64,000 bases of DNA from Rhodospirillales bacterium (GCA_038143065.1 JAYQLI010000035.1:640001-704000); one strand, 5' to 3'; positions 1-63,552 are shown, numbered from the stretch's first letter. Notes: generated by a model not told the origin, from the letters alone. Program-made: numbers and translations.

Positions 1-5
1 GCCCA

Positions 6-1744
6 TTGCAGCTGGCCCGCCACTTTGCCGCCGCTTTTCTTACACTCTTACTGATCCTGCCCAGCTCACAAAGTCTGGCAGAAAAGAGTGTGTCTGATCC
101 TCACGCAGATGTATTTGCTGAAGAGAATTATCCAACTGCTGCGCAATGTGGGACCTGTCATAAACAGATCTACAGAGAGTGGGCGTCAAGCAATCATGCT
201 TACTCATCTATTTCTCCCATGTTCCATAAATTTGAACAGAAGATTAACGATCTTTCGAGCGGTACAATTCGCGCATTTTGCGTTCGGTGCCATCAACAAG
301 TTGGAACTCAGCTCAACGAACGTCGAGACTTACCTCTTTGGGAGCGGAGCCAGATTGCGCGTGAAGGTGTAACGTGCATCACCTGTCACCGAGTGCAAGA
401 TCAGTTTTACAAGGTAAATGGTGAACGCCATATCGTGCCAGGGCCCATTTATTCTAAAGTCACTGGTGTTGGTGAAGGAGAAACACTTCAAAAGATTATT
501 GATAACCGCGACGAGTACCGCGTATCCGCCAGCCCCGACGAGCGTGGCGCGCAAATTCATACCGGCATTTACAAGTTTGATCAGATTAACAAGTCCGAGT
601 TCTGTGTGTCTTGTCACCAAGTTGCCGTGAACCCAGGAATTAAACTTGAGGTTGTTTGGGACCAATATCGAAACTCCCCTGCCGCAGCTGCAGGCGTTAC
701 CTGTCAAGATTGTCATATGGGTAAAGTACCAGGCCGAGCTGATGGTTATGAAACGGCTCCGGTAGCCATTGTTAATGGTGAGGAGATCGATCCAGACCGC
801 AAACACTCAAATCACGCCTTTTACGGTCCAGGATACCCAATAGCACATCCTGGAATTTTCCCCCATAATCCTGACGCGGCTGAAATTCCAATCGAAGATT
901 GGCTGCAATTTGACTATCGAGCAGGCTGGGGTTCACCAGAATTTGAAGAAAAAGTGGATGCTGGAGAAATCAGTGAAGATATCTTCCCAGATGCATGGGC
1001 AGACGTTGTTGATCGTGAAGAGGCGTATGAAATTATCCAGGAGAACATTGAACTTCTAGAAGAAAAACGTGAACTTCGTCGACAAGTAATGGAGAATGGT
1101 TCACGTGTAGACGGTCCGTTTTTTGCAAGTGCACCTAGATCCGGCTCATCCATGAGCTTTAAGATTAAAGTTACAAATACCGACGATGGGCATAACCTTC
1201 CATCGGGTTCTCTGGGAGCACAGCCTGAAATCTGGCTCAATGTAGCGGTGGTATCCCCATCTGGTAAGACGGTGTAGGAATCAGGTTATGTAGATAGCAT
1301 CGGCGACATGGCCGACAATCACTCCTAGATGTGGCGGCAGGCACAATTGATCACGACAATCAGTTGTTCAATCTGCAAACAAAATTCCTCTTCACCAATG
1401 TAAAAGGAACAGATAGGGAATGGTATCTTCCTATCAACGTAGATATTGACCAATTACCGTTCATACGACCACCAAATGTACCTACAACAATCCTGAACCA
1501 CCCTCCCTTCATTAGAATGGAAGGTCGCTCAATCCCGCCTCTTGGGGTACGAGACGCCAACTTTAGAGTGCCCTCAAGCGCTATGGTTGAGAAAGGCACA
1601 TACAAAATGGCAATCAGAATGCGTAGTCGTGCTGAGCCAATGTATTTCATGCGTTTCGTCGAAGCTACGCCTGAGATGGAAGAAGCCATGAATGAGTGGA
1701 TGTTAGATTTCCACGCCTACACCGTCGAATTCGACGTCAAGTAG
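6..1744 (+). CDS. Periplasmic pentaheme c-type cytochrome (c554-like multiheme family); reconstructed across an in-frame TAG at 1275-1277 and a frameshift near 1325
   Basis: Signal peptide and five CxxCH motifs (CGTCH, CVRCH, CITCH, CVSCH, CQDCH), plus W..SNH, HSNH and GHNLPSG motifs. Reading continues past the stop as KTV*ESGYVDSIGDMADNHS and joins ORF 1331-1744. Confidence 0.85.
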
Positions 1745-1818
1745 ATTGTTGAGATGCTTTCATTCAAACATTTTAATTGGTTAACCTCAGTCCATTTCTA
1801 TATAAAGGGGCTAAATCC

Positions 1819-3363
1819 GTGAGAGTTATTGAGCTCGCCAGAAGCAGCCATAAGCCCTTAATGGTAGCTACATGTGCTTCGTTGGTATTGCTTGCCACAT
1901 CAAACATCGCTGTTGCGGCTGGGCCTGACATTGATCGACCACGTGAGATGGACGGAAGCGTCCGTGTAACAGATTACGACGATAGTGTTTTTAAAGCTGA
2001 TCCTACTTACGAAGATAAGCCATATAGTGCTGAAGAGCAGATTAAGATCTATGGTGGCAAGAAGGACATCAAGGAACCCAGACCAATCATTGAAATTGGT
2101 CAGCCTCAATACATTGAGGGGCCCTTTAACCAATCCGATGGCTTTAAAGATTTAGGAGATAAAAACCCATTTTCTTGGGCTTTCTCAGTCTTCGGCGATT
2201 TCAGAACTGCAGTTGCCGGAAATGATATTGGTAACGACGAAGTATTTGAATGGGCGAATGTCCTGAACTTAGATGTTGACCTTAAGATTACATCAACCGA
2301 GAGAATACACGCTTTCCTAAAACCAATCGACCAGGGAGCAAATGTAGCAGGCTTCAGAACCGGAGATGATAGCGGGAATAATGGTTTTAACGGTGATGTT
2401 GATGCCGGGTTAGAAACCTTATTCTTTGAAGGTGATCTAGGCGTGATCGCGTCTGGTTTAACCGATGAATATCAATCTCAAGATCTGCCATTTTCGTTTG
2501 GACTAGTCCCTTTAATTATGCAAAACGGCCTCTGGGTAGATGACGCATTTCTTGGGGGAGGTTTCGCCTTCCCATCAATGAACAGCCCATTGCTCGATAT
2601 CACTAATATGGACATAACCTTCTTCTCTGGTTTTGGCGAAATTGATTCACCAGCCATTGCAGATGCTAATGGTACAGCATTCAATAATGAGGCCATGCTG
2701 TTCGGTGCCGCGGCATTTATTGAATGGTTTGAAGGTTATTCTGAATTTGGCATTGGTTACGTCGAAGGCACACAGGAAGTTGGAGATATTGATTACTTCA
2801 ACATTACCGGTGCGTTTACCAGAAGGTATGGTGGTTGGCTTTCAAACAGCGTTCGGCTGTTTGGTGCTGTAGGACAGGACACAAATAACCGAGCAAAAAC
2901 TGCTGACGGATTTGCGCTTCTCGTTGAGAACTCTCTCATTACAAGCAAACCAGGCACATACGTTCCTTATGGCAATTTTTGGATTGGCATGGATAAGCCT
3001 CAGGCTTTAGCTAAAAACAATGGTGGGCTTTTAAGAAATACAGGCATAACATTCGAAGCAGATGGGATGACGAGTTTTCCCAAACTCGATGACACCGCAA
3101 ATGATACCTACGGTGGCGCCATTGGCATTAACTACCTGTTTAGTCTTGACCAGCAGCTAGTTGTCGAGGCCTCAACAGTACAAATGCTTGAAGGTGACAA
3201 TCAAGCTGGGCAGTCCGCACAAGGCGCTCAGTATGCGGTTGGCTTTAGGTATCAGAAACCAATTACTAATCGTGTAATTCTACGCACCGATGGTATTTAT
3301 GCCGTTCGAGAAAATGCCAAAGATGTGGCTGGTGTCCGTTTTGAAGTTCGCATAAAGTTTTAG
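1819..3363 (+). CDS. Putative outer-membrane beta-barrel protein of unknown family
   Basis: Hydrophobic signal region ending AVAA, many alternating-pattern strands rich in Gly/Asp/Asn/aromatic residues, C-terminal beta-signal GVRFEVRIKF, no heme motif. GTG start follows a purine-rich RBS. Confidence 0.65.
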   Translation: MRVIELARSSHKPLMVATCASLVLLATSNIAVAAGPDIDRPREMDGSVRVTDYDDSVFKADPTYEDKPYSAEEQIKIYGGKKDIKEPRPIIEIGQPQYIEGPFNQSDGFKDLGDKNPFSWAFSVFGDFRTAVAGNDIGNDEVFEWANVLNLDVDLKITSTERIHAFLKPIDQGANVAGFRTGDDSGNNGFNGDVDAGLETLFFEGDLGVIASGLTDEYQSQDLPFSFGLVPLIMQNGLWVDDAFLGGGFAFPSMNSPLLDITNMDITFFSGFGEIDSPAIADANGTAFNNEAMLFGAAAFIEWFEGYSEFGIGYVEGTQEVGDIDYFNITGAFTRRYGGWLSNSVRLFGAVGQDTNNRAKTADGFALLVENSLITSKPGTYVPYGNFWIGMDKPQALAKNNGGLLRNTGITFEADGMTSFPKLDDTANDTYGGAIGINYLFSLDQQLVVEASTVQMLEGDNQAGQSAQGAQYAVGFRYQKPITNRVILRTDGIYAVRENAKDVAGVRFEVRIKF

Positions 3364-3447
3364 CTTAGACAAAAAAGCCTACTAATAGATTGGCGTTAGT
3401 ATTTTTACTTAAGATTGTACGACCCAAAATCTTGGGAGGATATTAAG

Positions 3448-4718
3448 GTGGAAAATATGGCGGCTTATTTAGCCACTGCTGCAGCTAGTCTCCTTGCTAT
3501 TTATATCCTGACGTTAATCTATGGATCGATTAGACAACAACTTCAGCTCGCTCGTCACTTTGAAGAACAGTCCTCACTTTTCAGAGCACGAGCAGATAGT
3601 CTGCAAAAAGCGCGGGCAGAAGAAATCCAAAAGACTCAAAATACCTGGAATGGTTTTAGAAAATTTGAGGTCGCTGAAAAAATAAACGAAATTGATGATT
3701 GCCACTCAATCTACTTAAAGCCACATGATGGGCGCCCTCTACCTCCCTTCGAGCCAGGACAATTTCTGACTTTTAAGTTTAAGGTTCCAGATCAAGCAAG
3801 CGATGTGATCAGATGTTACTCGCTGTCTGATGCACCTGGTAGAGATTACTACAGGATCACTGTTAAAAAGGTACCACCGCCACGAGGAAAGCCTGAATTA
3901 CCGTCTGGTGTTTCGTCCACGTATGTTAACGAAGTTCTCAAACAAGGTGATATTATTGATGTGAGAGCTCCGAACGGTGGCTTTTATCTGCAAAGGCAAC
4001 ATCGCCGTCCAGTCGTACTCATCGGTGGCGGTGTGGGGATCACTCCTGTTCTAAGCATGCTTAATTATATCATAGAGCATGAACCAGATCGTGAGACTTG
4101 GTTTTTCTTTGGTGCTCCCAACAAAGCAGGGCACATAATGCAGCAACATCTAAGAGAAGTTGCCGAGAACCATCCAAATATTAATATGAATATTTGTTAC
4201 TCTGACCCTACTGAAGACGATGTGCATGGCGAGGATTATGACCACCATGCTCGGGTGTCTGTGGAGCTCTTCAAAGAATTGCTTCCATCAAACAACTATG
4301 AGTACTACTTCTGCGGCCCTCCCCAATGATGAATGCCCTGGATGCCGATTTAAAGGCCTGGGGCGTACCGGAAGCGGACATACACTACGAGGCGTTTGGG
4401 CCAGCTTCGGTAAAGAAAGCCGCTCCACCTGCAGCGGCAAGCGAAGGCACTGAAGCTGCAGCTGCCATACCTTTAACGTTTGCAAAGTCAGGAAAGACAC
4501 TCGATTGGACACCAGCATCAGGTACAATTTTAGATTTAGCCGAAGCAAATGGAGTAGACATCGCATCAGGCTGTAGAGCCGGTAGCTGCGGAACATGCTT
4601 GACGGCAATCATTGAAGGTGATGTTGGATACGCAACACCACCTGATGCGGCTGTAGAAAATGGCTCTTGTTTGTCATGTGTTGGGACGCCTAAATGCCCT
4701 TTAAAAATCGACGCCTAG
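3448..4718 (+). CDS. FAD/NAD(P)H-binding FNR-type reductase with C-terminal [2Fe-2S] ferredoxin and N-terminal TM helix; frameshift near 4320
   Basis: RCYSL, GVSS, GGGVGITP and YFCGPP motifs in 3415-4329; CRAGSCGTC...C in 4326-4718. The junction lies in a C-run (GPPPMM). Confidence 0.88.
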
Positions 4719-5678
4719 CAGGAGGACTAGTTAGGCAGGCCAACTCCTGGATAGTAAACCTTACCGGAATATCTATAGTTGTCTCAACGGGGCGGCCTCC
4801 TTTTATTGCAGGCTTAAATCTCCAGTTTTTAACCGCTTTCAATGCTGCGTTATCCAGTCGATCAAATCCGCTTGTTTGGATGATTATTGCATGGGTGGTT
4901 GTGCCGGTAATCGATATATCCAATCGGACCCTAACAACCCCTCTTCACCCAATCGTTTTGAGACACTCGGATAAATTGGTGGCGCATTTTTAGAAAGTAT
5001 TGAAACAGGCTGATGCTCGAACTGTTGATTGCGGGCGTTCTTGCTCGATGACAACAGATAATATTCTAATTTATTATCATTTTTAAAAGATCTTCCTTCA
5101 GCATGTATATCTGATCTCTGGCTCTTAAAATCGCCTTGACGAACAAGATCAACGCTATCCAATTGCGGGTATGATTTTAAAGAAACCTGTCTATCTAAAT
5201 CTAAGCCTACCGCACTACTAACGACTTTGACCTCTGCGGATTTTACTTTTTTACCGAGCAAGTTCTGCAGGACTTCGGGTGTTTTTGCAGAGTGTGAAAA
5301 CTGCACTAGTTTGGAAGACGCTAATGACTCAGCATCTTGATTGGCAGAAACAATCCCTACTTCGGCTTGCTTTAATAATATACCTGGCTTCGCAGTACCA
5401 ATCGTCTCGGTTGATATGCGTTGCTCTGATCTTTCGGAAACCCTAGACCGCAAAGTTATAACTTTTTCTATCTCTTTCAATGACAACTGGTTTTCAAAAC
5501 CCGTAGGGATACTGGGCTCATAATTCTGTGGTATTTCAAATAATAAACTAATCGGGATCGCATCTTTTTGAACCGGTTTGTTAAATGCGTGATTGGCAAA
5601 AATTGCCAATACCAAAGCAAAATGGCATGCAAACGAGACAATTAGGAATTTTTTAAATGATGATGAGTATAGGGACAT
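4690..5678 (-). CDS. tonB: TonB energy transducer (frameshift near 4915)
   Basis: N-terminal TM with SxxxH (SFACH), then PPIYP..SKRLGEEG and a C-terminal domain SG..RLD.AAL.AV..WRFKPA. Confidence 0.8.
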
Positions 5679-5696
5679 TTAAGAATATTTGGACAA

Positions 5697-6473
5697 TTAA
5701 GCATCGCTCGAAATTATCCTTTCGAAATCTAACCCCTCTTTAATTTCTCCTCCTATCGGCCTTATCCCAAAACATTGGAATAAATTTTCATTGTTAAAGA
5801 CTACCTGTGGTTTATCAAAGCTTATACAGGTACCAAATTGTCCCAACAAAAGAGCTTTATCGGCAAATCGAAAAGCATGACGTATTTCGTGAGTTGTGAA
5901 AATTACTATCCTATCGGATGCAGCAATTTCTTTAAGCTTGGCCATCACATCAAGTTGGACACCAGGATCAAGCGCGGCTGCCGGTTCATCTGCAAGTAAA
6001 ATCTCAGGATCACCTACCAATGCCCGCGCTAGGTGTACTCTCTGTAACTCACCACCTGACAACTCGTTTGCGGGACGGTGAGTTAGTCTTTCCAATCGAA
6101 AATTTTCAATTTGCCGATCAATTTTTTCATTTTCAGATGCCGTAATTTTATCTAATCGGCTTCCAAACGGCACCAGTCCAAGGGCAACGACATCTCTTAC
6201 GGAAAGTGCCCAATGTATTTCAGATCGTTGGGGAAGATACGAGATGCACCGCGCACGAAAATTTGAATCCAGTTGGGTTAATTCCCTTCCATTAAAAAGG
6301 ATGCTGCCAGAACTCAAAGAACTAAGTGATGCCAACGCCCTTAGAAGAGTTGTTTTTCCGGCGCCATTTGGTCCTGATACCGCAAGCAGATTTCCACTGG
6401 TGATATTAAAACTAATGTTTTTAAGATATCCACCCTTCGTAACAGACAATTGCTTTACCGCTATCTCACTCAA
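5697..6473 (-). CDS. btuD: Cobalamin/siderophore ABC transporter ATPase
   Basis: Walker A GPNGAGKT, LSGGE signature, LLADEP; lies in the riboswitch-controlled operon. Confidence 0.8.
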   Translation of the reverse strand: MSEIAVKQLSVTKGGYLKNISFNITSGNLLAVSGPNGAGKTTLLRALASLSSLSSGSILFNGRELTQLDSNFRARCISYLPQRSEIHWALSVRDVVALGLVPFGSRLDKITASENEKIDRQIENFRLERLTHRPANELSGGELQRVHLARALVGDPEILLADEPAAALDPGVQLDVMAKLKEIAASDRIVIFTTHEIRHAFRFADKALLLGQFGTCISFDKPQVVFNNENLFQCFGIRPIGGEIKEGLDFERIISSDA

Positions 6474-6475
6474 AC

Positions 6476-7456
6476 CTAGCCTCTCCTTAGCTTAAGAATA
6501 AGAGCCAAGAAAAACGGCGCACCAATGAGTGCGGTTAAAACTCCCAATTTTAATTCTGAGCCTACTGAGAACACTCGTACTGCAAGGTCCGCAATCCCAA
6601 GCATGACTGCGCCTCCTAGAGCACTGGCAAAAAGGAGGGCTCCGGGCCGATGCCCAACAAAGGGACGCAATATGTGAGGAACAGCTAAACCAACAAAACC
6701 AATCACGCCGGCAACAGATGTTGCAGCGCCAACTGCCAAGGCTGTTCCAAATATAATCCTAACACTTACACCTCTCAGATTAAGGCCAAGACTACGAGCA
6801 GTTTCGGGGCCTAAAGACAAAGCATCTAGTGATGTACGAACACTTAAAAGTAGCCCCCATCCAATCATCATGAATGGGAGTGATACCCAAAGATGCTCCA
6901 TGCTACGGTCGGCCAACGAGCCCATTAACCAAAAGATAATCTCAGTTGCGGCAAAGGGATTTGGCGCAAAATTTAGTGCTAACGCTGTTAAAGAACCGGC
7001 TAAACTCGATATAGCCACACCTGCTAAAATTAGAGTTTCAGAATTACCTGCTCGACCAGCTAAAAACCAAACAAGCACTGTCGCCAACAGCGCCGATACA
7101 ATTCCTGCTAACGGGAGTATTAGCGTCCATCCCCCAAAAGCACCAAAGTAGAAAACTATAACCGAACCCAACGCAGCTGCAGGACCAGATCCTAATAAAG
7201 CAGGTTCGGCTAATGGGTTTTGCAAAAACCCTTGAAGGGCGGCCCCGCTTAGACCCAACGACGCTCCAATCGATATTGCAAGCAATATCCTAGGTAATCG
7301 CACTTCAAGCAGGATCAGCTTTGTTAAATTACTTCCTTCGCCAGACAACTCCTTAGCGGCTTCGTATAGTGAAATATTAGCGGGCCCATATAGTAACCCT
7401 GCGAAAAATACAGCCAAAACACTCAGGACAAGGAGTATGTATGAGTGAATCTTCAC
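6476..7456 (-). CDS. btuC: FecCD/BtuC-family ABC permease
   Basis: RLPR, LQNPLAEP and IGFVGL..PH motifs; polytopic membrane protein. Confidence 0.85.
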   Translation of the reverse strand: MKIHSYILLVLSVLAVFFAGLLYGPANISLYEAAKELSGEGSNLTKLILLEVRLPRILLAISIGASLGLSGAALQGFLQNPLAEPALLGSGPAAALGSVIVFYFGAFGGWTLILPLAGIVSALLATVLVWFLAGRAGNSETLILAGVAISSLAGSLTALALNFAPNPFAATEIIFWLMGSLADRSMEHLWVSLPFMMIGWGLLLSVRTSLDALSLGPETARSLGLNLRGVSVRIIFGTALAVGAATSVAGVIGFVGLAVPHILRPFVGHRPGALLFASALGGAVMLGIADLAVRVFSVGSELKLGVLTALIGAPFFLALILKLRRG

Positions 7457-8280
7457 TCCATATTCTCCCGAATGCGACGAAGCTTATTGAATGCCTCAGT
7501 TATAAACGGACTTCCACAAGTCCATAACCTATCTGGAATTGTTGTAGAGCGGTCATCCTTAAATATCACTTTAAGGGACCGATGACGTGGTACTATGCTT
7601 GCTAACGATGCAGGGCCATTTTCTGGAAGTATGAGAAGGTCTGGTTGGAGTGAAATTAATTCTTCAACTGAAAAATATTTTGGAACTTTAGAATTATGTC
7701 GACTGTTCAGATCGAGAAAACCAGCATGCCGGGTCACGCGAGCTGCTAACGAACTACTTCCTGGCGTATAACCATTATCCCAATAAAGAGCCGCGGTAAG
7801 CTTTTGCTTATTAAGCCCAGAAGACATCTTAAGTGCTTGATTGAGATGCTTGATAATACTTTCACCAGCTGCCTTCTCACCAACAGCGTTCGCAACAACT
7901 CTTATATTTCTCTGAATGCCATCAAAATCATTTGCTATCGGAAGTTCAAGTACATTAATGCCGGCACGTTTTAGCAATTTAACAGTGGATCGTGCTGAAA
8001 AGCCTCCAGAAAACACTATGTCTGGATTAAGAGGTAAAATTTCCTCTACAAGACCATAGTTTCTATGAAACCCTTTGGCTTTATCTGAAAGAGCTGAAAA
8101 ATTTGGATTGCTCGCAAAGTAACTCAAAGAAACGACATGTTGCTCTTTCGCGAGAAGCATCACCAACTGATCTGCGCAAAGATGAGTAGAGACAATTCTC
8201 TTCGGCGTGGCAGCAGAAGCGTGGAAATCACTATAAAGAACTAGGAGTAAGGATAAACTTACTTTGATAAATACTCTCAT
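7453..8280 (-). CDS. btuF: Periplasmic cobalamin-binding protein
   Basis: Signal peptide, PKRIVS..LCADQ, EEILPLNPD, WTCG (alphaproteobacterial BtuF type). Confidence 0.8.
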   Translation of the reverse strand: MRVFIKVSLSLLLVLYSDFHASAATPKRIVSTHLCADQLVMLLAKEQHVVSLSYFASNPNFSALSDKAKGFHRNYGLVEEILPLNPDIVFSGGFSARSTVKLLKRAGINVLELPIANDFDGIQRNIRVVANAVGEKAAGESIIKHLNQALKMSSGLNKQKLTAALYWDNGYTPGSSSLAARVTRHAGFLDLNSRHNSKVPKYFSVEELISLQPDLLILPENGPASLASIVPRHRSLKVIFKDDRSTTIPDRLWTCGSPFITEAFNKLRRIRENME

Positions 8281-10188
8281 CCCCCCAATTGAACCTGAAG
8301 CCCCATGAACGCGCCAAACCCAGGGTTGGCGGTCCCAAATACGTTCTCATACCTCTCGTTCAGTATATTCTGCAGCCTGCCAAAAATACTCACGCTGTCC
8401 GTTAATTTATATTTGATATTAGAATCAGCTAAAATGTAACTATCCAAAGTTACCGTCTGACTTCCAAAAGGTAATACCGCCTGAAAGGCCGTATCATTTT
8501 GCTTACCATAATAGGTCCCACCAAAATTTATCTCCAAGTCGCCGTTAAAACGAGTAAGTGTGGAACGCAGGCTAGCAATATGTTTAGGGCGGCGAATGAG
8601 CTCAACCCCATTCGCATCTTCTGTCGTTGTGTATGTATACTGTCCACTGAAAGAAAGGTTCGTTGCAGGGCGGATAGAAACCTCAAACTCCGCCCCCTCG
8701 ATCTTATTTTTTCCATTTAAATTTACAGCAGTTGCACCAGCACCCTGAATTAGGTTTTTGATGTTATTTTCAAAATAGGTGGCAGCAAAAGTTGCCTGTC
8801 CATTCATAAATTCTTGCTCAACTCCAACATCCCATCCGTAACTTTTTTCGGATTTCAGATTTGGGTTTGGAGTGAAGCCGGGAGCAAAACCGAATAGTTC
8901 AAAAAGTGTAGGGTTTTTAACCCCTTCTCCATAACTTGTATGAAGGCGAGTTCCAGTATCTTTAACAACGTACGCACCAGTAGTCCGCACGGTATTTGTA
9001 TTTTTGAAAAGGTCATTTTCGTCATGGCGAATACTTGCGCTTAGAAAGATTTGATCAAAAAGATCTAATTTATATTCACCGACAAAACCTATGGTTTCTG
9101 AGTCTACATCTGACTGAATGCCACCACCAAGCACGTCTTGCGCATCAATTTCATTATCAACCAGAAAGGTAAAAACATGAGATGCTTCAGCGAGCGCACT
9201 AGTTTCTATAAAAACATTTGATTGGTAATAAGCCCGTCGTTTATCTCCCTTAAAGGTAGAGGCAAACCCTCCGAAATTCTCTCGGTCAATTTCAGATATT
9301 CCGAGGCCTAATATATGCTCCCATTGCCCTTCAAAGCTCTGCAAAACAGACTTCAGGCCTAAAGAAAATGCCTCACTTTCTGTTTCTGATTGACTGTCTA
9401 CCGGGAGGGAAAAGCCCGCCTACGTTGCCTAGCTCATCAAATTCTTGCTGAGAGTCAACGTAGCGTCCTACGATCTCAAAATCTAAATTTTCAGTCAGCT
9501 GAATCCCAATTTTCGTATTGAACGCAGTAACATCAAATCCATCCTGTTCAGTATTACCCTGGCGCTCTGGAGCGAATGAAACACCTTCGGTACTGAATTC
9601 TGATAACCCAAGGGAGTAATTAACAATTCCTTCCGAACCTCGAACACTTACGGCTGCTTTCCCGGTACCGAATGATCCACCTTCGGCGCTAGCTGCAGCT
9701 TTAATCGCTCCATCTCCGCTTTTAGTTATGATATTAATGACGCCACCTATTGCATCGCTTCCGTAAAGTGAGCTCTGTGGCCCCCGGAGGATTTCTACGC
9801 GCTCAATATCATCTACGAGCAAAGTATTGAAATCGAATTCTGAAGCTCCGCTAGGATCGTTTACTTCCACCCCATCTATTAGAACCAATGTATGGTTGGC
9901 TTCAGTTCCACGCATACGAACTTGCGTTTGCGCCCCAACAGGTCCTGTTCTGCTTAACGAGATACCAGGTACGTCCCGAAAAACGTCAGCTACAAAACTA
10001 GTTTGCTTTCTCGAGAACTCTTCCGATGTCACTACAGAAATAGAGCTGCCAGACGCAATTCGCGAAGTTGGCGTTCGGTTGGCAGTAACGACAACCTCAG
10101 GCATAACCTGAGGATAATTTTGGGCAAAACTCGCGCTTTCGGACACGAATATAAGCCCCGCAAACAATAAAAATCCTGAGAGCCGCAT
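8277..10188 (-). CDS. btuB: TonB-dependent cobalamin receptor (frameshifted around 9345-9410)
   Basis: TonB box EVVVTANR, plug motifs LVLIDGV and IERVEILRGPQSSLYGSDAIGGVINIIT, barrel half in 8277-9344; directly downstream of a cobalamin riboswitch. Confidence 0.88.
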
Positions 10189-10340
10189 TACGACGTATTC
10201 CCCATAAGACCGTTGCGCCAATGACCGCCTACATGAATGAGGAGTTAAAACACACTCACCCAACAGGCACTCATTACGCATCGCCTATCACGGAGAACCG
10301 TTGCGCTACCTACCCCGGGCTACGCGTGGGCGACACTAAT

Positions 10341-10575: not shown

Positions 10576-10887
10576 CTATGCATCCGACATTATGTGGATT
10601 ACTCGATCAGCTAGGAGTTCTTTGGTCAAAGCACCATATGCCTTCATGTGTGCTGACACAGCGTGAGCTTTCAAATGATCCAAGCTCGCCCATTTTTCCA
10701 CCACTACGAATGTATCTTCACCGTACTTCGCAGCAAAGTCTGCATTAGCGCAATCAATCGTAGCGCCGTATTCGATACAACCATCTTCTGCAAGTACTGC
10801 GGGAACATTCGCTTTAAAGTGCTTTAGCACCTCGTCTCTTTTACCTGCTTTGGTTGTTATGACTGCGATAACATGAACACGACTCAT
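10576..10887 (-). CDS. Antibiotic biosynthesis monooxygenase (putative quinol monooxygenase, YgiN-like)
   Basis: VLAEDGCIEYG...FVVVEKWASLDHLKAH...HM pattern of the ABM fold. Confidence 0.85.
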   Translation of the reverse strand: MSRVHVIAVITTKAGKRDEVLKHFKANVPAVLAEDGCIEYGATIDCANADFAAKYGEDTFVVVEKWASLDHLKAHAVSAHMKAYGALTKELLADRVIHIMSDA

Positions 10888-11079
10888 CAATAATATCTCC
10901 ATTAATTTTACTTTTTTAGCCTGCAGTTACTTCAGATAAGCGTCAATGTCTCGTTCCACTCAACTGCAGCTAACAATGCGACTAAAACCATACACGTATA
11001 TTATCAAAGTACGTTTGGCCCTGATGAACAATGCTATTAGAGACTTAAGATCGTAAAGAAATGACTTTGGAGTTCTGGT

Positions 11080-11235
11080 GTGTCCAAAATTCGTCGAAAA
11101 TCAGACCTTCCATCAAAGACATGCAAGGTTTGTGGCAGACCATTCAGCTGGCGTAAGAAATGGGAAAAGGTTTGGGATGAAGTAGTTTATTGTTCAAAGC
11201 GCTGCGCATCGAATAGAGCCAAATCAGGACAGTAA
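11080..11235 (+). CDS. DUF2256-family small Cys-rich protein (51 aa; absent from the ORF track)
   Basis: Hand translation from GTG gives MSKIRRKSDLPSKTCKVCGRPFSWRKKWEKVWDEVVYCSKRCASNRAKSGQ*, matching the LP.K.C..C.RPF.WRKKW...W..V.YCS.RC signature. Confidence 0.88.
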   Translation: MSKIRRKSDLPSKTCKVCGRPFSWRKKWEKVWDEVVYCSKRCASNRAKSGQ

Positions 11236-13840: not shown

Positions 13841-15621
13841 ATGACTGAACCAGCTCACGATCTTGGTGATCTTCCAAATTGGGACCTAACCGATCTTTAT
13901 TCTGGGATAAATGATCCGAAGCTAGAAGCGGACCTGTCTGAGTGCGGTGGGCGTTCAGCAACATTTGAAAAAACATGGAAAAGTAATCTTATTGGAATAG
14001 ACGCTAAGTCTTTAAAGCAAGCTATAGTCGAATATGAAGCGATTGATGAAATATTATCGAGGATAATGAGTTTTGCAGGCCTGCTTCATGCAGGCGATCT
14101 ATCAGATCCCGCACGTGGTCAGTTCATGCAAAACATGAGCGAACGTGCCACCGATATCGCATCAAAATTAGTGTTTTTTGAGTTAGAAATTAATCAATTC
14201 TCGGAGGAAGCAATTTCAGCTCTTATTAGCGATCCAGAATTGTCTCCTTATGGTATCTGGTTAGACCAGCTTAGCCGATGGAGGGCGCACCAACTTTCAG
14301 AGGAAATGGAAACCTTCATTCAAGAAAAGGCTTCAAGTGGCAGGCAAGCATGGAACAGGCTTTTGATGAAACTATGGCCGACCTGCGTTTTGTTGTCTCT
14401 GGCCAGACGCTAACTAACGCTGAAGCTCTTAACCTCCTCTCCTCACCGATTAGACAGCAACGTAAAGAAGCTGGCGAAGCAATTGGTACCACACTGAAAG
14501 AAAATTCTCGTATTTTTACGCAAATTACAAATACGCTGGCTAAAGATAAGTTTGTAGAAGATAAATGGCGCAAATACACTCGACCAATATCATCCCGTAA
14601 TCTTTCTAATCAGGTAGAAGATGAGGTTGTCGACGCCTTAGTTGAAGCTGTGCGCAGTTCTTATAGCCAACTCTCCCATCGGTATTACTCAATTAAGGCA
14701 AATTGGTTTGGTGGCGAGCGGTTGGAATATTATGATCGCAACGCTCCTCTGCCAGATAGCGTAGAGCGTAATATTCCATGGTCAGAGGCAGAGCACATCG
14801 TACTTGAAGCCTATGATGCGTTCAGCCCAAAGCTAGCTGATGTAGCAAGGCCTTTTTTTGAAAACTCTTGGATCGATGCGCCCACTCGAGCGGGTAAGAG
14901 TCCAGGTGCTTTTGCGCACCCGACCGTTCCCTCTGCACATCCTTACCTGCTCTTAAATTATCAGGGCAAGACCCGTGATGTGATGACTTTAGCTCATGAG
15001 TTAGGTCATGGTGTGCATCAAAGGTTAGCGGCGTCGCAAGGGCACTTTCTATCGAATACACCTCTCACTTTAGCTGAGACAGCATCTGTATTTGGGGAAA
15101 TGTTAACCTTTCAGAAATTACTGAAAGATGCTGATCCTAAAACAAAGAAAGCGCTTCTCGCCGGCAAGACTGAGGATATGTTGAATACGGTAATCAGGCA
15201 GATTGCCATGCTCATGTTTGAAATTAATCTGCACAATGAACGAAAAAATGGCGAGCTATCTACTGACCGAATTTGTGAAATATGGATGGAAACACAAACC
15301 GAAAGTCTAGGCCCGGCACTAAATTTCGATGATGGCTACAAATATTTTTGGTCCTATATCCCACATTTCATTCATTCACCATTTTATGTCTACGCTTATG
15401 CTTTTGGTGATTGCCTCGTTAACGCCCTCTACGCTGTCTATCAGGATAGCGAAGCGGGATTTGCCGATCGTTATCTAGAAATGCTCGCGGCAGGTGGATC
15501 AAAGGGACATAAAGAGCTCCTCTCACCCTTTGGGTTAGATGAATCTGACCCAGATTTTTGGAAACGTGGGCTTAATGTGATTGGTGGGTTTATCGACCAA
15601 TTGGAAACGATAGATGGTTAA
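13841..15621 (+). CDS. pepF: M3 family oligoendopeptidase F (frameshift near 14362)
   Basis: LPNWDLTDLY N-terminus, GKSPGAF, zinc motif TLAHELGHG, HF...PFYVYAY. Confidence 0.9.
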
Positions 15622-22093: not shown

Positions 22094-22755
22094 TCATTTA
22101 AGAACACTGGCCGCCTGCCATGGCTCACCGATTTTATCCAGAAACACAAATTCACCCATGCTTCCTCTTCCTACAGGCCCAAAGTTACCCAGCGGATATC
22201 CAATTGGAATGATCGCGTAAGAATGCACGCCTCTTGGTAACCCCAGAGCTTTTTCAGACTCTTCTTCAAAATAGAGGTGTCTGTTTGTTAATGTAGCTCC
22301 TAATCCAAGTGCACGAGCTGCCAACAGCATATTCTGAACAGCGGGGTATATTGAGGCACCAGAGTGACGTGTTGGTTTTGACTCCCCATGATCTATGCAC
22401 GCTACAATCCAAATTGGCGCCTCATGGAAATGATCGGTCAAATATTCAACTGCTGTATGTTGCCTATGATACCCTTCCTTCGTTGAACCAGGCGGAGGAC
22501 TGATCGAAGAGTAGCGGGGCTAATCCATTCGTCGTAAGCCTTTTTATAAATAACCTGAACTTTTTTCTTTATTTCAATGTCTTTAACAACAAGAAAGCGC
22601 CAGGTTTGCATATTCCCACCATTAGCGGCGGACATTCCAGCCTTTAAAATCTTTAACACTAAATCATCTGGCACAGGTTCTGGCTTTAAACGACGCATCG
22701 CTCTGGTCGTAAACATAATGTCAAAGACATCCTGAGAAGAAACATCGGTCATCAT
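22094..22755 (-). CDS. Nitroreductase family protein (frameshift near 22515)
   Basis: TRAMRRLKPEPVPD, A.NGGN.Q.WRFLVV, SIYPAVQNMLLAARALGLG, IPIGYP. Confidence 0.87.
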
Positions 22756-22811
22756 TAAGGCCTCGCCTAAGTGGATTTTACCAAATTGAAGTAACCAAAA
22801 ATCAAAGCGTA

Positions 22812-22827
22812 CATTGCATATGCAATG
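22812..22827. promoter_or_regulatory. Perfect 16-bp palindrome CATTGCATATGCAATG; probable operator in a divergent promoter
   Basis: Exact inverted repeat in the intergenic region between the divergent nitroreductase and TfdA-like genes. Confidence 0.55.
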
Positions 22828-22926
22828 CAATGTTATTTTGCTCATAAATAGAAATTAAAAAAACTTCTATGGCATCGAAGCGTAACCACGCTAACATCGG
22901 TTAAATAACGAGGGAGGTTTATAGAG

Positions 22927-23810
22927 ATGACACTCTCTATTCGACAAGTTGGCCCCTGTTTTGCAGGCGAAGTGACAGGAATTAATCTGACTAAACCGCT
23001 TCCACCTGGTGTCGCACAAGAAATTCATGATGCAATGGATGAATATGCTGTTCTTGTGTTTCCAGATCAGAATTTTACCGACGAAACACAGATAGCCTTT
23101 ACCGAACATTTAGGCGAAATAGAGCACTCCATTGGGGCGGGACTCAGAAAGCCCGATGAATATCGTCTCTCAACTCATTTTGCTGATGTATCGAACCTTG
23201 ATAAAGAAAATAAAGTTTACGGACGAGAGGACAGGCGACGACTATTTGCTATCGGCAATCGTCTCTGGCACTCAGACAGCAGCTTTAAGGTAGTTCCTGC
23301 GAAGTACTCCTTCTTCATGCAAGAGCTATCCCTTCAAAAGGGGGAAACACTGAGTTCGCTGATATGCGAACGGCTTATGATGACCTCGACAATGAAACGA
23401 AAAAACATATCGATGATATGATTGCTGAGCATACTCAAATCCACAGTCGGAGATCAGTTGGTTTTGAGGAATTTGATGAAGAGGAGCGCATTCGTATGGC
23501 TCCGGTAAAGCAGAGACTCGTAAGAATTCATCCATCAACCGGACGAAAATCCCTTTATCTCTCAAGCCATGCTGGCAGAATTGATGGAGTACCAGTCACT
23601 GAGGCCATGCTTCTTCTAAAAGACCTTACAGAACATGCTACCCAAAGGGAGTATGTATACTCCCATAAATGGCGGCTGCACGATCTGGTCATTTGGGATA
23701 ACCGACGCACAATGCACCGGGCTCGCCCCTTCCCTGAGAATGAACCACGGGATATGCGTCGAACAACTGTGATAGGTGATGGCCCCACAGTAGAACAACA
23801 AGTCGCTTAA
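22927..23810 (+). CDS. TauD/TfdA-family Fe(II)/2-oxoglutarate dioxygenase (frameshift near 23310)
   Basis: GNRLWHSDSSF (HxD), GGNTEFADMR in the corrected frame, WDNR.TMHRA, DMRRTT. Confidence 0.9.
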
Positions 23811-25148: not shown

Positions 25149-26890
25149 TCAATTCGCAAGGGCAGCATCTTCGATTATCAACCTAGCCTCATCCCTTCCC
25201 CGCCATGTATTAATTTCAATTCGACCAATCACATGGATAACTGCTGGTCGCGATTGAAGAAAATCCCCAAGAGGTGAACCAATACTTCGGAACGACATAG
25301 CCGAGATACTAAAACCGTCAGGCCCTTCTAACCGGATTGCTAGATGCGAATTCTTAATCACACGCAAATCTTTTAACCTCACGCCTGCTACAGCAAACCT
25401 AGGCTCAGGGTTACCCATACCAAACGGGGATAACTTCTCTAAAGCGTTTGCCGCAGCATACGCGCCCTTAGGGCCAATGACCGCGTCTATTCTTATTGAA
25501 ACTTCCTCAGCTGCTTTATCAATATTTTCCGAAAGCTTAGAGGACAAAACCTCCACAAAACTCTTGAAACCTTCCTCCGCAACACGAAATCCCGCGGCCA
25601 TATTGTGGCCACCACCTGAAATTAATAATCCTTCTTCGCGGAGGTCAATTATCGCAGGACCTAAAGCTACCCCAGAAACTGACCTACCTGAACCAGTAGC
25701 AATCCCATCTTCAATTGCGGCAACCAGGGCGGGTCTTTTGAAACGCTCAACCAAGCGACTTGCAACAATCCCAACAACTCCTTGCCGCCACCCTGCACTT
25801 GAAACAGCGATTACCTTGGCCCCGCTATCGGCTTGAACGTCAGCTTGTTCTAGAGCTTGGTCAAACACAGACCGCTCAATTTGCTGACGTTGACGATTGA
25901 GATTATCCAGCTCGGAGGCAATCATTGCAGCTTCCTCTGGATCATCCGTTGAAAGAAGACGCACCCCAAGTTCGCTGCGGCCTATTCGCCCTCCAGCATT
26001 GATCCTTGGGCCTATCACAAATCCCATATGGGACGCTTTGGGTGCGCCCTGCACTCCACCTACCCTTAGCAACTCAGCAATACCCAGCTTCGGGTTAATA
26101 GCCATTACGCGGAGGCCTTGCGCCACTAGTGCTCGATTGACACCTGTTAAAGAAGCAACATCTGCGACGGTACCAAGAGCAACCAAATCTAGAAAATTCA
26201 TCAGATCAATATCGACCTTAAGTTTTCGTCGAAGCGCTACAACAAAAGAAAAACTACTCCCACAGCAGCAAGTTGAGTGTGAGGGCTGATTTCGTCTGCT
26301 CGGTTAGGGTTAACAACTGCGACAGCATTTGGTGTGGCTTCTGCGCCTACATGATGGTCTAGAACTATGACATCAAGGCCAACTTCATTGGCAGCATCAA
26401 TGGCTTCAAATGCAGTAGCTCCGCAATCAAGGGTCAATACTAAGTTACAACCTGACTCCTTAAGATAATTCATAGCGGCTGGATTAGGGCCATACCCCTC
26501 TTTCTCGCGGTCCGGCACGTAAACCAACACATCTGCGCCTAGAACGGACAAAAACCTCTGGAGAAGCGCTCCTGATGTAGCGCCGTCAACATCATAATCG
26601 GCGAATATTGCAATGCGTTCATTGCTCTGAAGAGCCGCTTCGACCCTCTCAACAGCTCTGTCCATATCAAGAAAAGTTAAAGGATCGGGAAGCTGATCTC
26701 GCAGCCGCGGCGACAAGAAAGCTGCCGCTTCCTGTTTGTTCTGAATACGGGCTGCTAATACATTGGCAACGCCGTCTGGAAGATCAAACTGCCTTGCATA
26801 AAATTCAGCGAGACGAGAGTCGCTAATTACAGAGACCCAAGCTTTGCCACTAGCCGACTTTTCAACATTTAACGCGTATTTTGAGACCAA
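25149..26890 (-). CDS. recJ: Single-stranded DNA exonuclease RecJ (frameshift near 26240)
   Basis: DYDVDGATS, DCG, DHH, LVALGTVADV, GPRINAGGR, GSGRS, GGGH.MAAG. Confidence 0.95.
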
Positions 26891-26904: not shown

Positions 26905-27878
26905 TCAGTCAAACATCGATTTCCGTTCAAAATTATGAAAGGTTTCAATTTTACGAACGGTACCAGTCTTTGAACGCATTACAAGTGATTGGGTGCTTAC
27001 ACCTTTACCTTTTCTGCGAACACCCGCGAGCATAGAGCCACTAGTTACCCCAGTGGCTGCAAACATCACATCCCCAGATGCTAGCTCTTCGAGATTGTAT
27101 TTCCTATTTAGATCTTCAACGCCAATTCGATGTGCGCGTCCGCGTTCATCGTCATTGCGGAATATCAATCGGCCTTGAAATTGGCCGCCTATGCAACGAA
27201 GCGCGGCCGCGGCTAACACACCCTCAGGAGCACCGCCAGAGCCCATGTAAATATCGACACCACTCTCTACATTTGTTGTCGCAATCACTCCGGAAACATC
27301 CCCATCAGAAATGAGCATTATACGCGCTCCAGAGTTTCTAACTTCCTCAATCAATTCCTGATGACGTGGGCGATCTAGAATACAGGCGACAAGGTCCTCT
27401 ACTTTAACACCACGCGCATCGGCCAAATTATTAAGATTTTGTGTGGGGCTGTTGTCTAGATCTATCACGCCCGCAGGCAGACCCGGACCTACGCCAATTT
27501 TGTCCATGTACACGTCAGGTGCATGTAAAAACCACCATCATCTGCCATAGCAATAACGGCTAACGCATTAGCACCACCTTTGGCGGTTATAGTAGTACCT
27601 TCCAAGGGGTCTAGAGCAATGTCAATTTTTGGACCTCTACCAGTTCCAACCTTCTCACCGATATAGAGCATGGGCGCTTCATCACGCTCGCCCTCACCTA
27701 TTACTACTTTCCCATCTATATCTAATGAGTTTAGGGCCTGACGCATTGCATCAACTGCCGCCTGATCTGCAGCTTTTTCATCCCCGCGCCCCATGAGCCG
27801 TGATGCCGCAAGCGCCGCAAATTCTGTCACACGAACAGCTTCAAGCGCCAGGTTACGGTCCATTTTTTCTTCAGACAT
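26905..27878 (-). CDS. glpX: Class II fructose-1,6-bisphosphatase (frameshift near 27528)
   Basis: [41 protein letters not shown]. Confidence 0.95.
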
Positions 27879-32913: not shown

Positions 32914-33878
32914 ATGATAATGCCTTCTGCTGAATCGCTGTCCTCTCGCCACCTTATTGGTATCGAGGGCCTTTCGCCCGCTGAAATTGGTTTGCTTCTG
33001 GATTTATCTGATCGCTATGTCGATTTTAATCGTAGTGCAAACAAGAAAGGTGACGCACTACGTGGACGAACAATTATTAATGTTTTTTTCGAAAACTCGA
33101 CACGTACACGCACTTCTTTTGAGCTGGCTGGAAAACGCTTAGGAGCGGATGTCATCAATATCTCTCCGGAGGTGAGCTCTGTTCGTAAAGGCGAGACACT
33201 CCTCGATACAGCTTTAACTTTGGATGCAATGCATGCCGATCTATTGGTTGTTCGACATCCTGAATCTGGAGCCGTTGGCCTAATTTCGCAAAAAGTGCGC
33301 TGCTCAGTTGTTAATGGTGGCGACGGCGCACACGAGCATCCAACACAAGCTCTTTTAGATGCCCTTGCAATCCGTCGACGTAAGGGAAAACTCTCCGGCC
33401 TAATAGTCGCGATATGTGGCGATATTCTTCATAGCCGGGTTGCCCGTTCAAATATGATTTTGCTTCGAACAATGGGTGCAGAAGTAAGGCTGGTGGCACC
33501 CCTACTCTTTTACCAGCTGAGGTAGAAAGATACGGAGTAACCGTCCATACTAACCTTTCAGAGGGTTTAAAAGATGCAGACATCGTCATGATGTTGCGCC
33601 TTCAGCAAGGACGGATGCGTGGAAGTTTTGTCCCCTCCACAACTGAGTACTTTCGATTTTTTGGTTTGGACAGCCAAAAGCTTGCGATGGCTAAACCAGA
33701 CGCCCTTATTATGCACCCTGGCCCTATGAATAGAGGTGTCGAAATTGACTCTGATGTGGCTGACGACATTAATCGCAGCCTAATCCAAGAACAGGTAGAG
33801 ATGGGCGTTGCAGTACGCATGGCATGTCTTGACCTGTTAACCAGAGATCTCACGGGTAATGAGGGGCCGGCAGAATGA
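32914..33878 (+). CDS. pyrB: Aspartate carbamoyltransferase catalytic subunit (frameshift near 33500)
   Basis: [36 protein letters not shown]. Confidence 0.95.
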
Positions 33879-40342: not shown

Positions 40343-40829
40343 TTATTTTGGCTTTAGATAATGGAGCTCGTCACCCGTCCATCCAACACCGTTGGGTACC
40401 GTATAATAGAAATCAATTGTCATTTCTTTAAACAACCAACCTGCCTCCGTTCGATGATAGACATCATCATAACGACCAGAAACAAGATATGAGACACCAA
40501 ACCTGCCATATCTAGCCTCTAGATAAGAATGACCAGTTCCCCGATCTCCATCCACAAATATTCTATGGCTATGAATCATCTGCTTTATAAAAAATCGGTC
40601 TCTCTTCCCCCATACCCTGGAAAGTAGCCTCAATTTCAGCCTTTCCACGGCTTTGGGATAAGTATCCCAATTTTACATAGGCATCTTCAGTAAAAAGCTT
40701 TGCAATATCGCTGTACCGTCCATCATTTATTGCAGCATGATATGAGTCTCGCAGTGACCTTATCTCTTCACGGTCTTCGAGCATTCTAATTCGCGCTTCA
40801 AGTCTCTTTATGGTTTTATCATCCGACAT
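40343..40829 (-). CDS. SnoaL/NTF2-like protein (frameshift near 40610)
   Basis: LE.RI..LEDREEIR.L...Y...I, LFTEDA, GRYDD.Y.R...GW.F. Confidence 0.82.
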
Positions 40830-60946: not shown

Positions 60947-60950
60947 TAAT

Positions 60951-62957: not shown

Positions 62958-62961
62958 CGTC

Positions 62962-63550: not shown

Positions 63551-63552
63551 CG

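Follow-up and report, generated by a model that had tools for sequence, protein, structure and literature searches.

The ptdABC genes of a Rhodospirillales bacterium and a proposed route for electrons from NAD(P)H to a periplasmic multihaem cytochrome

The ptd genes and the cluster to which they belong

This study concerns a stretch of 64,000 nucleotides (nt) from a Rhodospirillales bacterium (GCA_038143065.1 JAYQLI010000035.1:640001-704000), hereafter called the window, and in particular three co-oriented genes at its left edge. All three lie on the plus strand: ptdA (3..1744) encodes an exported pentahaem c-type cytochrome with a conserved C-terminal domain, ptdB (1819..3363) an exported outer-membrane beta protein of 514 amino acids (aa) that is a putative porin, and ptdC (3448..4718) a membrane-anchored NAD(P)H-FAD-[2Fe-2S] reductase. 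The ptdB gene is intact; ptdA is cut at its 5' side by the window edge and interrupted twice, and ptdC carries one frameshift. An earlier sequence-only reading of this DNA had described three co-oriented genes with gaps below 100 bp. The order is real and the gaps measure 74 nt (ptdA-ptdB) and 84 nt (ptdB-ptdC), but the genes are not all intact, and the lesions in ptdA and ptdC had been missed. In the related loci described below, unlike the window, ptdA and ptdC each occupy a single reading frame.

A scan of one genome per species for relatives of the barrel protein yielded 12 related loci (L001-L012), all from metagenome-assembled genomes (MAGs), most of them titled Alphaproteobacteria. The loci fall into two clades that are only about 50% identical; the closest relative of the window, L001, has 86.8% DNA identity to it over 3508 aligned bases (blastn). 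The order cytochrome-barrel-reductase is the same in 10 of the 12 loci (tblastn), and the other two are limited by contig ends, since L001 stops just past the barrel gene and L006 starts within it. The proposal that the three genes occur together as a unit is thus borne out. Clustering of the neighbouring genes uncovered four further conserved, co-oriented genes directly upstream of ptdA. Wherever the DNA extends far enough, ptdD and ptdE are present (9/9 for both), as are ptdF (10/10) and ptdG (11/11, one of them partial), and the order in every readable locus is ptdD-E-F-G-A-B-C, with all genes in one orientation. In L001, the end of the decahaem gene stands immediately before the cytochrome gene. 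Because L001 and the other relatives carry ptdD-G before ptdA, the left edge of the window, to judge from these relatives, cuts the operon in the middle, and ptdD-G lie off that edge, as the suspicion of a larger, truncated operon had anticipated. Around the three ptd genes, promoter-like sites number 6 (8.3 expected) and terminator-like sites 5 (5.1 expected), and none between the genes stands above chance.

The gene names come from a preprint (bioRxiv 10.1101/2023.11.21.568154), passages of which name an operon ptdABCDEFG. There, PtdA is described as a pentahaem protein that carries a beta-sandwich at its C-terminus, PtdB as a porin, PtdC as an FAD/NAD(P) oxidoreductase, PtdD as a periplasmic tetrahaem protein, PtdE as a cyclic-nucleotide-binding 4Fe-4S protein, PtdF as a ferric-reductase-like membrane protein and PtdG as a deca-haem protein. 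The same passages assign the operon to the marine Alphaproteobacteria order UBA11136 and other hosts, call it prevalent among marine Alpha- and Gammaproteobacteria, Nitrospirales and Planctomycetes, and report high transcription of ptdAB in Alphaproteobacteria of oxygen-deficient zones. They too report the homology to the Thermochromatium (T.) tepidum c552 and the flavohaemoprotein likeness of PtdC that are described below. The function of ptd is called 'completely unknown' in these passages, and the roles suggested are extracellular electron transfer or nitrogen cycling.

All seven component types of the preprint were recovered here, likewise in MAGs of marine Alphaproteobacteria, and the haem counts match: five in PtdA (11/11), four in PtdD (9/9) and ten in PtdG (10/10 full-length copies). 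Judged by this composition, the window genes are ptdABC, the 3' part of the published seven-gene cluster, and are already known; the earlier picture of an undescribed, self-contained three-gene unit has to be given up. There are also differences. The gene order here is D-E-F-G-A-B-C, while the names are alphabetical; of the seven genes the window has A-B-C alone, and A and C are interrupted; and PtdE has four ferredoxin-type Cys motifs here, where the passages of the preprint speak of two clusters. A literature search for ptdABCDEFG, or for PtdA together with porin-cytochrome, returned the preprint alone. The ptd cluster is widespread in marine metagenomes. Two things are added here, both drawn from sequences: a plan, at the level of domains, for the wiring between NAD(P)H and the periplasm, and a connection to the MccSep reductase, the sole relative whose biochemistry has been solved. 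This connection yields an enzyme hypothesis with named residues. A caution is added as well: ptdA and ptdC of the window are interrupted, and the assembly is noisy.

The seven Ptd proteins

As the sequence-only reading had stated, PtdA is an exported cytochrome with five CxxCH motifs followed by a haem-free C-terminal domain. All five motifs can be located in the translation (plus strand, 147-161, 279-293, 375-389, 603-617 and 702-716; span 147..716), and their ten Cys and five His are invariant in 88 PtdA sequences. The CxxCK active-site motif of NrfA was correctly said to be absent: there is none in the window ptdA and none in 11 of 11 related PtdA proteins. Matches in Pfam are to Cytochrome_C554 and other multihaem families, with Cytochrom_C552 limited to residues 204-242, and a word-index search gave 2759 relatives of PtdA among 8000 candidates scored. 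The haem-free region that follows the five motifs is 210 aa long, and 123 of its 210 columns are invariant in 11 sequences. Between the two clades, PtdA is the best conserved of the seven Ptd proteins, at 57-71% identity against 30-39% for PtdG and 42-51% for PtdD; we favour the view that such conservation fits an enzyme better than a wire. In PtdA of L007-L012, an Ala/Glu/Lys-rich insert of 71-171 aa follows residue 326, between the haem and C-terminal domains. The insert also occurs in P0171, P0177, P0182, P0188, P0193, P0210, P0224 and P0236, and is absent from the window PtdA.

Which characterised cytochromes does PtdA resemble? The top NCBIfam family for 40 of 40 PtdA sequences is the ExtKL model NF040886 (best E 1.6e-13). 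The best sequence match in the PDB is the pentahaem c552 of T. tepidum, 5ze8 (E 4.3e-7 with a single sequence, 1.1e-8 with a profile), in an alignment that covers haem motifs 1-3 and 4-5. This c552 is shorter than PtdA (435 residues against about 586), and the C-terminal domains of the two give no sequence alignment. The structure of Chen et al. 2019 (5ze8) reportedly consists of five haems and an immunoglobulin (Ig)-like domain. ExtKL, Gsu2801 and T. tepidum c552 have been grouped in one pentahaem family in the part of the literature that treats them (PMC11976967). According to portions of a recent paper (Sci Adv 2026; PMC13510729), ExtKL is MccSep, a periplasmic, homotetrameric, mushroom-shaped polysulfide (and selenite) reductase, with an Ig-like stem and a helical cap holding five haems. 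The active site comprises haem 2, the distal Cys239, and a selenocysteine (Sec) on a loop of the Ig-like domain, in the peptide ...TNHAGHSIPDGUP...; the family survey in these portions retained only Sec/Cys sequences (PMC13510729).

PtdA has an invariant peptide, ...TNTDDGHNLPSGSLG..., in its C-terminal domain. The loop GHNLPSGS within it (1188..1211, plus strand) is invariant both in the set of 88 and in the set of 40 sequences, and is the by-eye counterpart of the GHSIPDGU loop of MccSep; the pattern T-N-x-x-G-H-x-[IL]-P-x-G is, again by eye, common to both. In this alignment, the residue at the position of the MccSep selenocysteine is an invariant Ser, S409. No in-frame TGA occurs at the equivalent position of the window ptdA, and neither the 88 nor the 40 sequences contain a conserved Cys beyond the ten of the haem motifs. 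It follows, independently of the by-eye alignment, that PtdA has neither a Sec/Cys nucleophile nor a His/Cys-ligated haem. By its sequence, then, PtdA is not an MccSep, but it probably shares the MccSep fold. Both are periplasmic pentahaem proteins with five CxxCH motifs, a haem cap and a C-terminal Ig-like or beta-sandwich domain, and both are encoded beside an outer-membrane porin-like protein; PtdA differs in the Ser at the apparent Sec position and in the lack of a His/Cys haem. Searches of the literature on ptd turned up no paper linking ptd to MccSep.

The resemblance extends to the surrounding genes. In the extHIJKLMNOPQS cluster of Geobacter sulfurreducens, as set out in parts of three papers (PMC5877670, PMC6148476, PMC13510729), the porin-like ExtI stands beside ExtKL, together with cytochromes of 4, 10 and 12 haems, a b-type cytochrome and a Rieske Fe-S protein; ExtI is required for reducing selenite and tellurite, not for reducing Fe(III) citrate, and has been proposed to be a selenite channel. 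The two clusters share 4-haem and 10-haem cytochromes, a b-type cytochrome of the inner membrane and an Fe-S protein. The ptd cluster lacks the rhodanese (ExtH), ExtJ and the 12-haem protein, and in place of the Rieske/b quinol-type module it has the NAD(P)H-FAD-2Fe-2S reductase, a cyclic-nucleotide-binding protein with 4x[4Fe-4S] and a four-His membrane protein. The hosts differ too, ptd being found in marine MAGs, mostly of Alphaproteobacteria, and ext in anaerobic Desulfobacterota. The sequence-only reading had allowed for a close, characterised homolog of the cytochrome whose operon would explain its neighbours. The ext cluster does offer such parallels, but PtdA is a distant, not a close, relative of ExtKL/MccSep.

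PtdB was described earlier as an exported protein of roughly 515 aa with a beta-signal, VRIKF, and this description holds: the product has 514 aa, a signal peptide of 33 residues ending ...NIAVA (1819..1917, plus strand; from the translation, with a presumed cleavage site), and the C-terminal beta-signal VRFEVRIKF (3334..3360, plus strand), with alternating hydrophobic residues and a terminal Phe. Translation starts at GTG 1819, the same codon at which the closest relative starts with ATG. Invariant C-terminal residues are G505, E509, R511 and K513; at F514, conservation reaches at least 90%. In all, 73 columns are invariant in 83 sequences, which is unusually conserved for a porin. Neither a single PtdB sequence nor a profile finds a sequence match in Pfam, NCBIfam or the PDB, and a scan of 83 family members at E <= 1 gave sporadic matches: YfaZ in 5/83, Porin_4 in 1/83 and OMP_b-brl in 1/83. 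The homolog P0006 belongs to unnamed clusters, with a weak lead to PF13372 Alginate_exp (31% of the members of one cluster, score 0.93). The family is large, with 1452 homologs at E <= 0.001 among 8000 candidates, and at E <= 0.001, 1e-10 and 1e-30 a PtdB profile found 857, 643 and 329 cluster representatives, respectively, among 1.84 billion.

The architecture of PtdB was approached through covariation, using a mean-field analysis of 243 family sequences (effective number, Meff, 186) scored in seven-cell ladders with parallel ladders as the control. Antiparallel ladder cells above 20 numbered 41, against 0 in the parallel control, and the maxima were 30.7 and 18.4, respectively. Eleven distinct next-neighbour hairpins exceed every control, and about 7 more lie at or under the control maximum. 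These results support an up-and-down antiparallel beta meander that would run from about residue 118 to residue 514. An amphipathicity heuristic, itself crude, places about 13 segments beyond the signal peptide. Outside the meander lies a conserved stretch, mature residues 34-117, that could form a plug or docking segment. No haem motif is present in the window copy of PtdB, in 12 locus copies or in six longer relatives. Many barrels of the PtdB family are 600-1255 aa long, with N-terminal extensions; the six that were checked (P0362, P0363, P0370, P0395, P0439 and P0465) show extension types that include Cds6_C/NTF2-like repeats, FimV_N plus LysM, and long Pro/Gln-rich linkers. A fused cytochrome-barrel of the Cyc2 type was considered for these proteins and rejected, as there is no CxxCH in the N-terminal extensions of the six.

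PtdC likewise agrees with its first description as an FNR-type reductase with a plant-type ferredoxin and an N-terminal transmembrane (TM) helix, in that the Pfam domains and the hydrophobic helix are both present. By alignment to relatives, its gene starts at GTG 3448, not at 3415, and in 11 of 11 loci it is a single open reading frame (ORF) of 421-428 aa. The N-terminal helix (AAYLATAAASLLAIYILTLIYG; 3460..3525, plus strand) is present in relatives and weakly conserved between clades. The Pfam domains follow in the order FAD_binding_6, NAD_binding_1 and Fer2, and the protein shows the motifs RCYS, GGGVGITP and CGP and the CxxxxCxxC of plant-type ferredoxins. The [2Fe-2S] motif CRAGSCGTC is encoded by 4572..4598 (plus strand), with the fourth Cys downstream in ...NGSCLSC... 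(Pfam Fer2, 1.2e-12). PDB matches are to flavohaemoprotein reductase modules (1cqx/3ozu, 2.7e-49) and, over residues 69-413, to phthalate dioxygenase reductase (2pia). Many homologs carry a precomputed match to PF08030, the ferric-reductase NAD-binding domain, and a word-index search gave 3410 relatives among 8000 candidates scored. The FAD/NAD module is like that of Hmp/FHP: PtdC scores 223 bits against the NCBIfam Hmp model, below the cut-off of 432, over the reductase module (profile positions 142-366 of 399). No globin domain appears in this match; in PtdC, the TM helix and a long linker stand in its place. Fusions of the phthalate-dioxygenase-reductase type (2pia, PaaE) have the same FAD-NAD-[2Fe-2S] order, but no oxygenase partner gene is found near ptdC. 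The positive residues that follow the helix, together with the need for NAD(P)H, suggest a cytoplasmic orientation for the catalytic domains.

The four upstream proteins are known here from the relatives. PtdD is an exported tetrahaem protein of 304-326 aa that resembles c554, with 4 CxxCH in 9/9 sequences. PtdE (540-557 aa; L002-L011, for example L005 3499-5121) has two cyclic-nucleotide-binding domains and a DmsB/NrfC-like ferredoxin part with 16 invariant Cys in four ferredoxin motifs, and it has no signal peptide. Its first cyclic-nucleotide-binding domain contains an invariant FGELAALGR.PR cassette, which we take to resemble the cAMP-binding cassette of protein kinase A. PtdF is a membrane protein of 271-308 aa with five helices and no family match in the initial scan. 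Four of its His are invariant in 10 sequences; two hydrophobic helices carry two each, 14 residues apart. Two His pairs on two TM helices classically hold a stack of two b-haems that spans a membrane. PtdG, a decahaem protein of 626-730 aa (L002-L012, for example L005 5876-8068), has a TM helix followed by ten haem motifs (10 CxxCH in 10/10), and on the cytoplasmic side of the helix an invariant eight-Cys region of about 90 residues. This region may serve as a metal or Fe-S site in contact with PtdE or PtdC. The eight-Cys region is not mentioned in the passages of the preprint that describe PtdG (bioRxiv 10.1101/2023.11.21.568154).

A possible electron route and its alternatives

The reading that best accommodates these proteins, to which we give about an even chance (roughly 0.5), is that electrons from NAD(P)H are exported through PtdC, E, F, G and D to a catalytic periplasmic PtdA, with PtdB serving as a solute channel. 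PtdC would sit at the cytoplasmic face by its single TM helix, since NAD(P)H is located there, and would pass electrons from NAD(P)H through FAD to its [2Fe-2S] cluster. Cytoplasmic PtdE would take the electrons from that cluster, relay them and probably gate their flow. PtdF would then move them over the inner membrane on two b-haems, and the TM-anchored decahaem PtdG and the soluble tetrahaem PtdD would carry them through the periplasm. PtdA would be the terminal catalytic enzyme, with the ExtKL/MccSep fold and, given Ser in place of selenocysteine and no Cys haem ligand, a different active-site chemistry. PtdB, as a mid-size channel of about 16-18 strands, would pass the substrate or product of PtdA over the outer membrane, as proposed for ExtI and selenite. 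Two suggestions of the sequence-only reading are modified by this scheme. Cytoplasmic NAD(P)H may plausibly be linked to periplasmic redox chemistry, but the inner-membrane crossing would be encoded by genes outside the window (the 4x[4Fe-4S] protein, the four-His membrane protein and the TM-anchored decahaem). The idea that substrate reaches a catalytic cytochrome through the barrel, earlier one of two options, is now the favoured one, though still drawn from sequence comparisons.

The logic is that of NOX/FRE and of MsrQ with Fre, in which cytoplasmic NAD(P)H reduces a flavin, and two b-haems on His pairs of two TM helices pass the electrons to an acceptor outside. In ptd, the corresponding functions would be split over three proteins, [2Fe-2S] and four ferredoxin-type [4Fe-4S] motifs are inserted, and the acceptor is a chain of c-type cytochromes. 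As with NOX or MsrQ, no energy is conserved along such a chain, and a non-respiratory periplasmic reduction is therefore indicated, be it assimilatory, detoxifying or of another kind. If PtdA does reduce a seawater solute, the cluster would bear on marine redox cycling in low-oxygen water.

Could the cluster instead encode a conduit like MtrAB(C), PioAB or MtoAB, with Ptd cytochrome haems inside PtdB and respiratory electrons passed on to Fe(III) or Mn(IV) outside the cell? The preprint suggests this first (bioRxiv 10.1101/2023.11.21.568154, in the passages on function), and as in those systems a multihaem gene adjoins the gene of an outer-membrane beta protein; the cluster holds 19 c-haem motifs (5+4+10), and a decahaem protein (PtdG) is among its products. 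However, the neighbour of the ptd barrel has five haems and a large non-haem domain, and the decahaem is anchored in the inner membrane. The conserved cluster contains no gene for an outer-surface cytochrome or lipoprotein and none for a quinol dehydrogenase of the CymA/NapC type; its donor module is linked to NAD(P)H rather than to quinol, so that a conduit would conserve no energy. PtdB has about 480 mature residues and, by a crude count from covariation, some 16-18 strands rather than the roughly 26 of an Mtr-type barrel, and its family lacks haem motifs. PtdA resembles a globular enzyme (MccSep is a mushroom-shaped homotetramer) and not a thin, MtrA-like wire, and the NCBIfam DmsE/MtrA model TIGR03508 gives it only about 33-35 bits against a cut-off of 192. 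In addition, ExtI is dispensable for reducing Fe(III) citrate, according to the parts of the ext papers cited above. On balance we consider a conduit unlikely, and the five haems beside the barrel and the missing CxxCK uphold the earlier statement that the module is neither Mtr/Pio/Mto nor NrfA. It is harder to see how electrons would run inward, with PtdA oxidising a low-potential periplasmic donor (sulfide/polysulfide, sulfite or hydroxylamine) and PtdD/G, F, E and C in turn reducing NAD(P)+, in the manner of Hmc/Tmc. Inward flow along the haems is opposed by the inside-negative membrane potential, and reduction of NAD(P)+ needs a donor below about -320 mV; outward flow is favoured for these reasons. 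PtdA also lacks the Sec and Cys that MccSep uses for S-S chemistry. FNR-type modules are nevertheless reversible, as is generally known. The T. tepidum c552 is said to have a low potential and a tie with sulfur metabolism (as cited in PMC11976967, in the part concerned), and passages of the preprint report that its organisms transcribe sulfide-oxidation genes and that ptd occurs in nitrite oxidisers, which need reductant (bioRxiv 10.1101/2023.11.21.568154). Weighing these points, we regard inward flow as decidedly improbable.

A further alternative would detach PtdC from the chain altogether, making it an independent NAD(P)H reductase of the membrane, acting, say, on NO or ferric iron, whose gene merely stands downstream. 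Its FAD/NAD module is indeed closest to the NO-detoxifying flavohaemoproteins, and a single helix cannot carry electrons across a membrane. Yet PtdC has no globin domain, and the upstream PtdE and PtdF provide the partners that it needs; moreover, ptdC follows ptdB directly in 11 of 11 complete copies, in two clades that are about 50% identical, and its start is also seen at the end of L001, and no promoter or terminator signal above chance separates the ptd genes. We see very little chance that PtdC acts separately.

Several points weigh against an exporter that feeds a catalytic PtdA. Its identification with ptd rests on matching composition and not on identity to the preprint's PtdA query, which is an IMG gene id. 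PtdA resembles ExtKL weakly, with NF040886 scores from 37.5 bits (window piece) to about 41 bits in the two sequences with printed scores against a cut-off of 250, and the resemblance is restricted to the haem domain. The C-terminal domain has no PDB match with a single sequence or an 11-sequence profile, and three copies of the 210-aa domain and a 250-aa extension gave no match to the ExtKL model; since no hidden Markov model (HMM) matches this domain, the placement of Ser at the Sec position depends on a motif match made by eye. The high conservation of PtdA could equally reflect tight protein contacts rather than catalysis. For PtdB, the count of about 16-18 strands in some 400 residues is our own crude estimate from noisy data. 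Contact between the first and last strands is not significant, as 23% of random, far-apart blocks score as high, and covariation therefore leaves a closed barrel unproven. PtdF reaches Pfam Ferric_reduct PF01794 in one of three sequences, at 19 bits against a 28-bit cut-off. The direction of electron flow is argued from bioenergetics, and the barrel, the strand number and the match of the PtdA fold to MccSep and 5ze8 are all read from sequence.

We also put forward, more tentatively, a bolder form of the same scheme, which is doubtful as it stands: PtdA may found an undescribed Ser-type branch of the MccSep/ExtKL fold, carrying out new haem-centred chemistry on a seawater solute, powered by a cyclic-nucleotide-gated, split NOX-like exporter (PtdC-PtdE-PtdF-PtdG) rather than by the quinone pool, with PtdB as its dedicated channel. 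Candidates for that solute would be iodate, selenite, an N-oxide or hydroxylamine, or a sulfur species. If such a branch exists, it would make ptd a novel kind of periplasmic reductase system, non-respiratory and widespread among marine bacteria.

Interrupted genes and the surroundings of the cluster

In the window, ptdA is read as two ORFs in different frames (6-1277 and 1331-1744). The TTG at 6 is not the true start, which in relatives lies about 6 codons to the left of the window. The first ORF ends at an in-frame TAG (1275..1277, plus strand), where L001 has TGG and where a Trp, W431, is invariant in 88 sequences; a recoded codon was considered at this site and rejected on these grounds. 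The frameshift follows at 1324..1325 (plus strand), with CC here and CCC in L001 (blastn). Apart from these lesions, the window PtdA is 97% identical to the intact 586-aa P0121, and ptdA is in one frame in 11 of 11 related loci. The ptdC gene is read as ORFs 3415-4329 and 4326-4718, with the frameshift at 4321..4324 (plus strand): the window has a run of 4 C, and an intact CCT CCC CCA needs 5 C. L002 and L005 read CCA CCG CCA at this site, and the relatives encode CGPPPMMNAL in one frame.

Are these genes dead, or are they misread? At least 13 genes are clearly split in the 64 kb, and about one gene in four is split or truncated. Besides ptdA, ptdC, tonB and the gene of the TonB-dependent receptor, the clear cases are a nitroreductase gene (22094-22845), tauD (22927-23810), recJ (25149-26890), glpX (26905-27878), pyrB (32914-33878), a SnoaL-like gene (40343-40829), an aminotransferase gene (42813-43863), phnJ (60951-61794) and an M3 peptidase gene (13841-15621). 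Probably split are an amidohydrolase gene (35881-37107), a RraA-like gene, the AcrB gene (47.9-51 kb), the gene of a HlyD-type protein, phnK/L and phnG. So many split genes across the window suggest a noisy assembly. Against L001, the ratio of nonsynonymous to synonymous substitution rates (dN/dS) comes to 0.017 for one ptdA piece and 0.004 for the other, and to 0.025 for ptdB, at dS of 0.7-0.9; any inactivation of ptd would therefore be very recent. Because about a quarter of the genes are split and dN/dS is this low, sequence error seems the likelier cause of the interruptions in ptdA and ptdC, compared with gene decay. The contrary view is that the TAG and both frameshifts are real, that ptdA and ptdC are recent pseudogenes, and that the module is dead here, in a decaying genome in which a quarter of the window genes are split. 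Three lesions do fall within 4.7 kb, the TAG is a substitution rather than an indel and so lies beyond homopolymer error, and homopolymers are not clearly enriched at the 13 frame breaks (background 1.65 runs per 100 nt); the last two of these points also count against sequence error. On the other side, both ptd frameshifts are losses of 1 nt in C-runs, and glpX, pyrB and recJ are broken too, a joint loss that a free-living cell could hardly sustain. With the low dN/dS added, a dead module appears improbable.

On the minus strand, a cluster resembling those for B12 uptake (4690-10281) converges on ptdC. It is headed by a cobalamin riboswitch (RF00174, 10327-10530, minus strand, 101.8 bits) and encodes a TonB-dependent receptor (split, 9373-10281 and 8277-9344), a periplasmic binding protein (7453-8280), a FecCD permease (6476-7456), an ABC ATPase (5697-6473) and TonB (split, 4884-5678 and 4690-4923), all in the same orientation. 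The 3' end of the cluster overlaps ptdC by 29 nt. A functional link between ptd and these neighbouring TonB, ABC and receptor genes was considered and rejected, because the cobalamin riboswitch marks the cluster as one for B12 uptake and the cluster is absent from the 11 other loci.

Beyond this cluster lies a gene for a protein of 108 aa like the ABM-family monooxygenases (10576-10902, minus strand), which is 80-83% identical to a gene found downstream of ptdC in L002-L006. In those loci, the ABM-like gene comes directly after a CoA-transferase gene; in the window, the B12 cluster separates it from ptdC. A low-GC, gene-poor stretch at about 10.9-12.6 kb contains an ORF of 51 aa with two CxxC pairs (11080-11235, plus strand). 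Toward the right end of the window, C-P lyase phosphonate genes occupy 57645-63858 (minus strand); they encode PhnG, PhnI, PhnJ, an ABC-type PhnK/L-like protein, an amidohydrolase and a DUF1045 protein, and several of them are interrupted.

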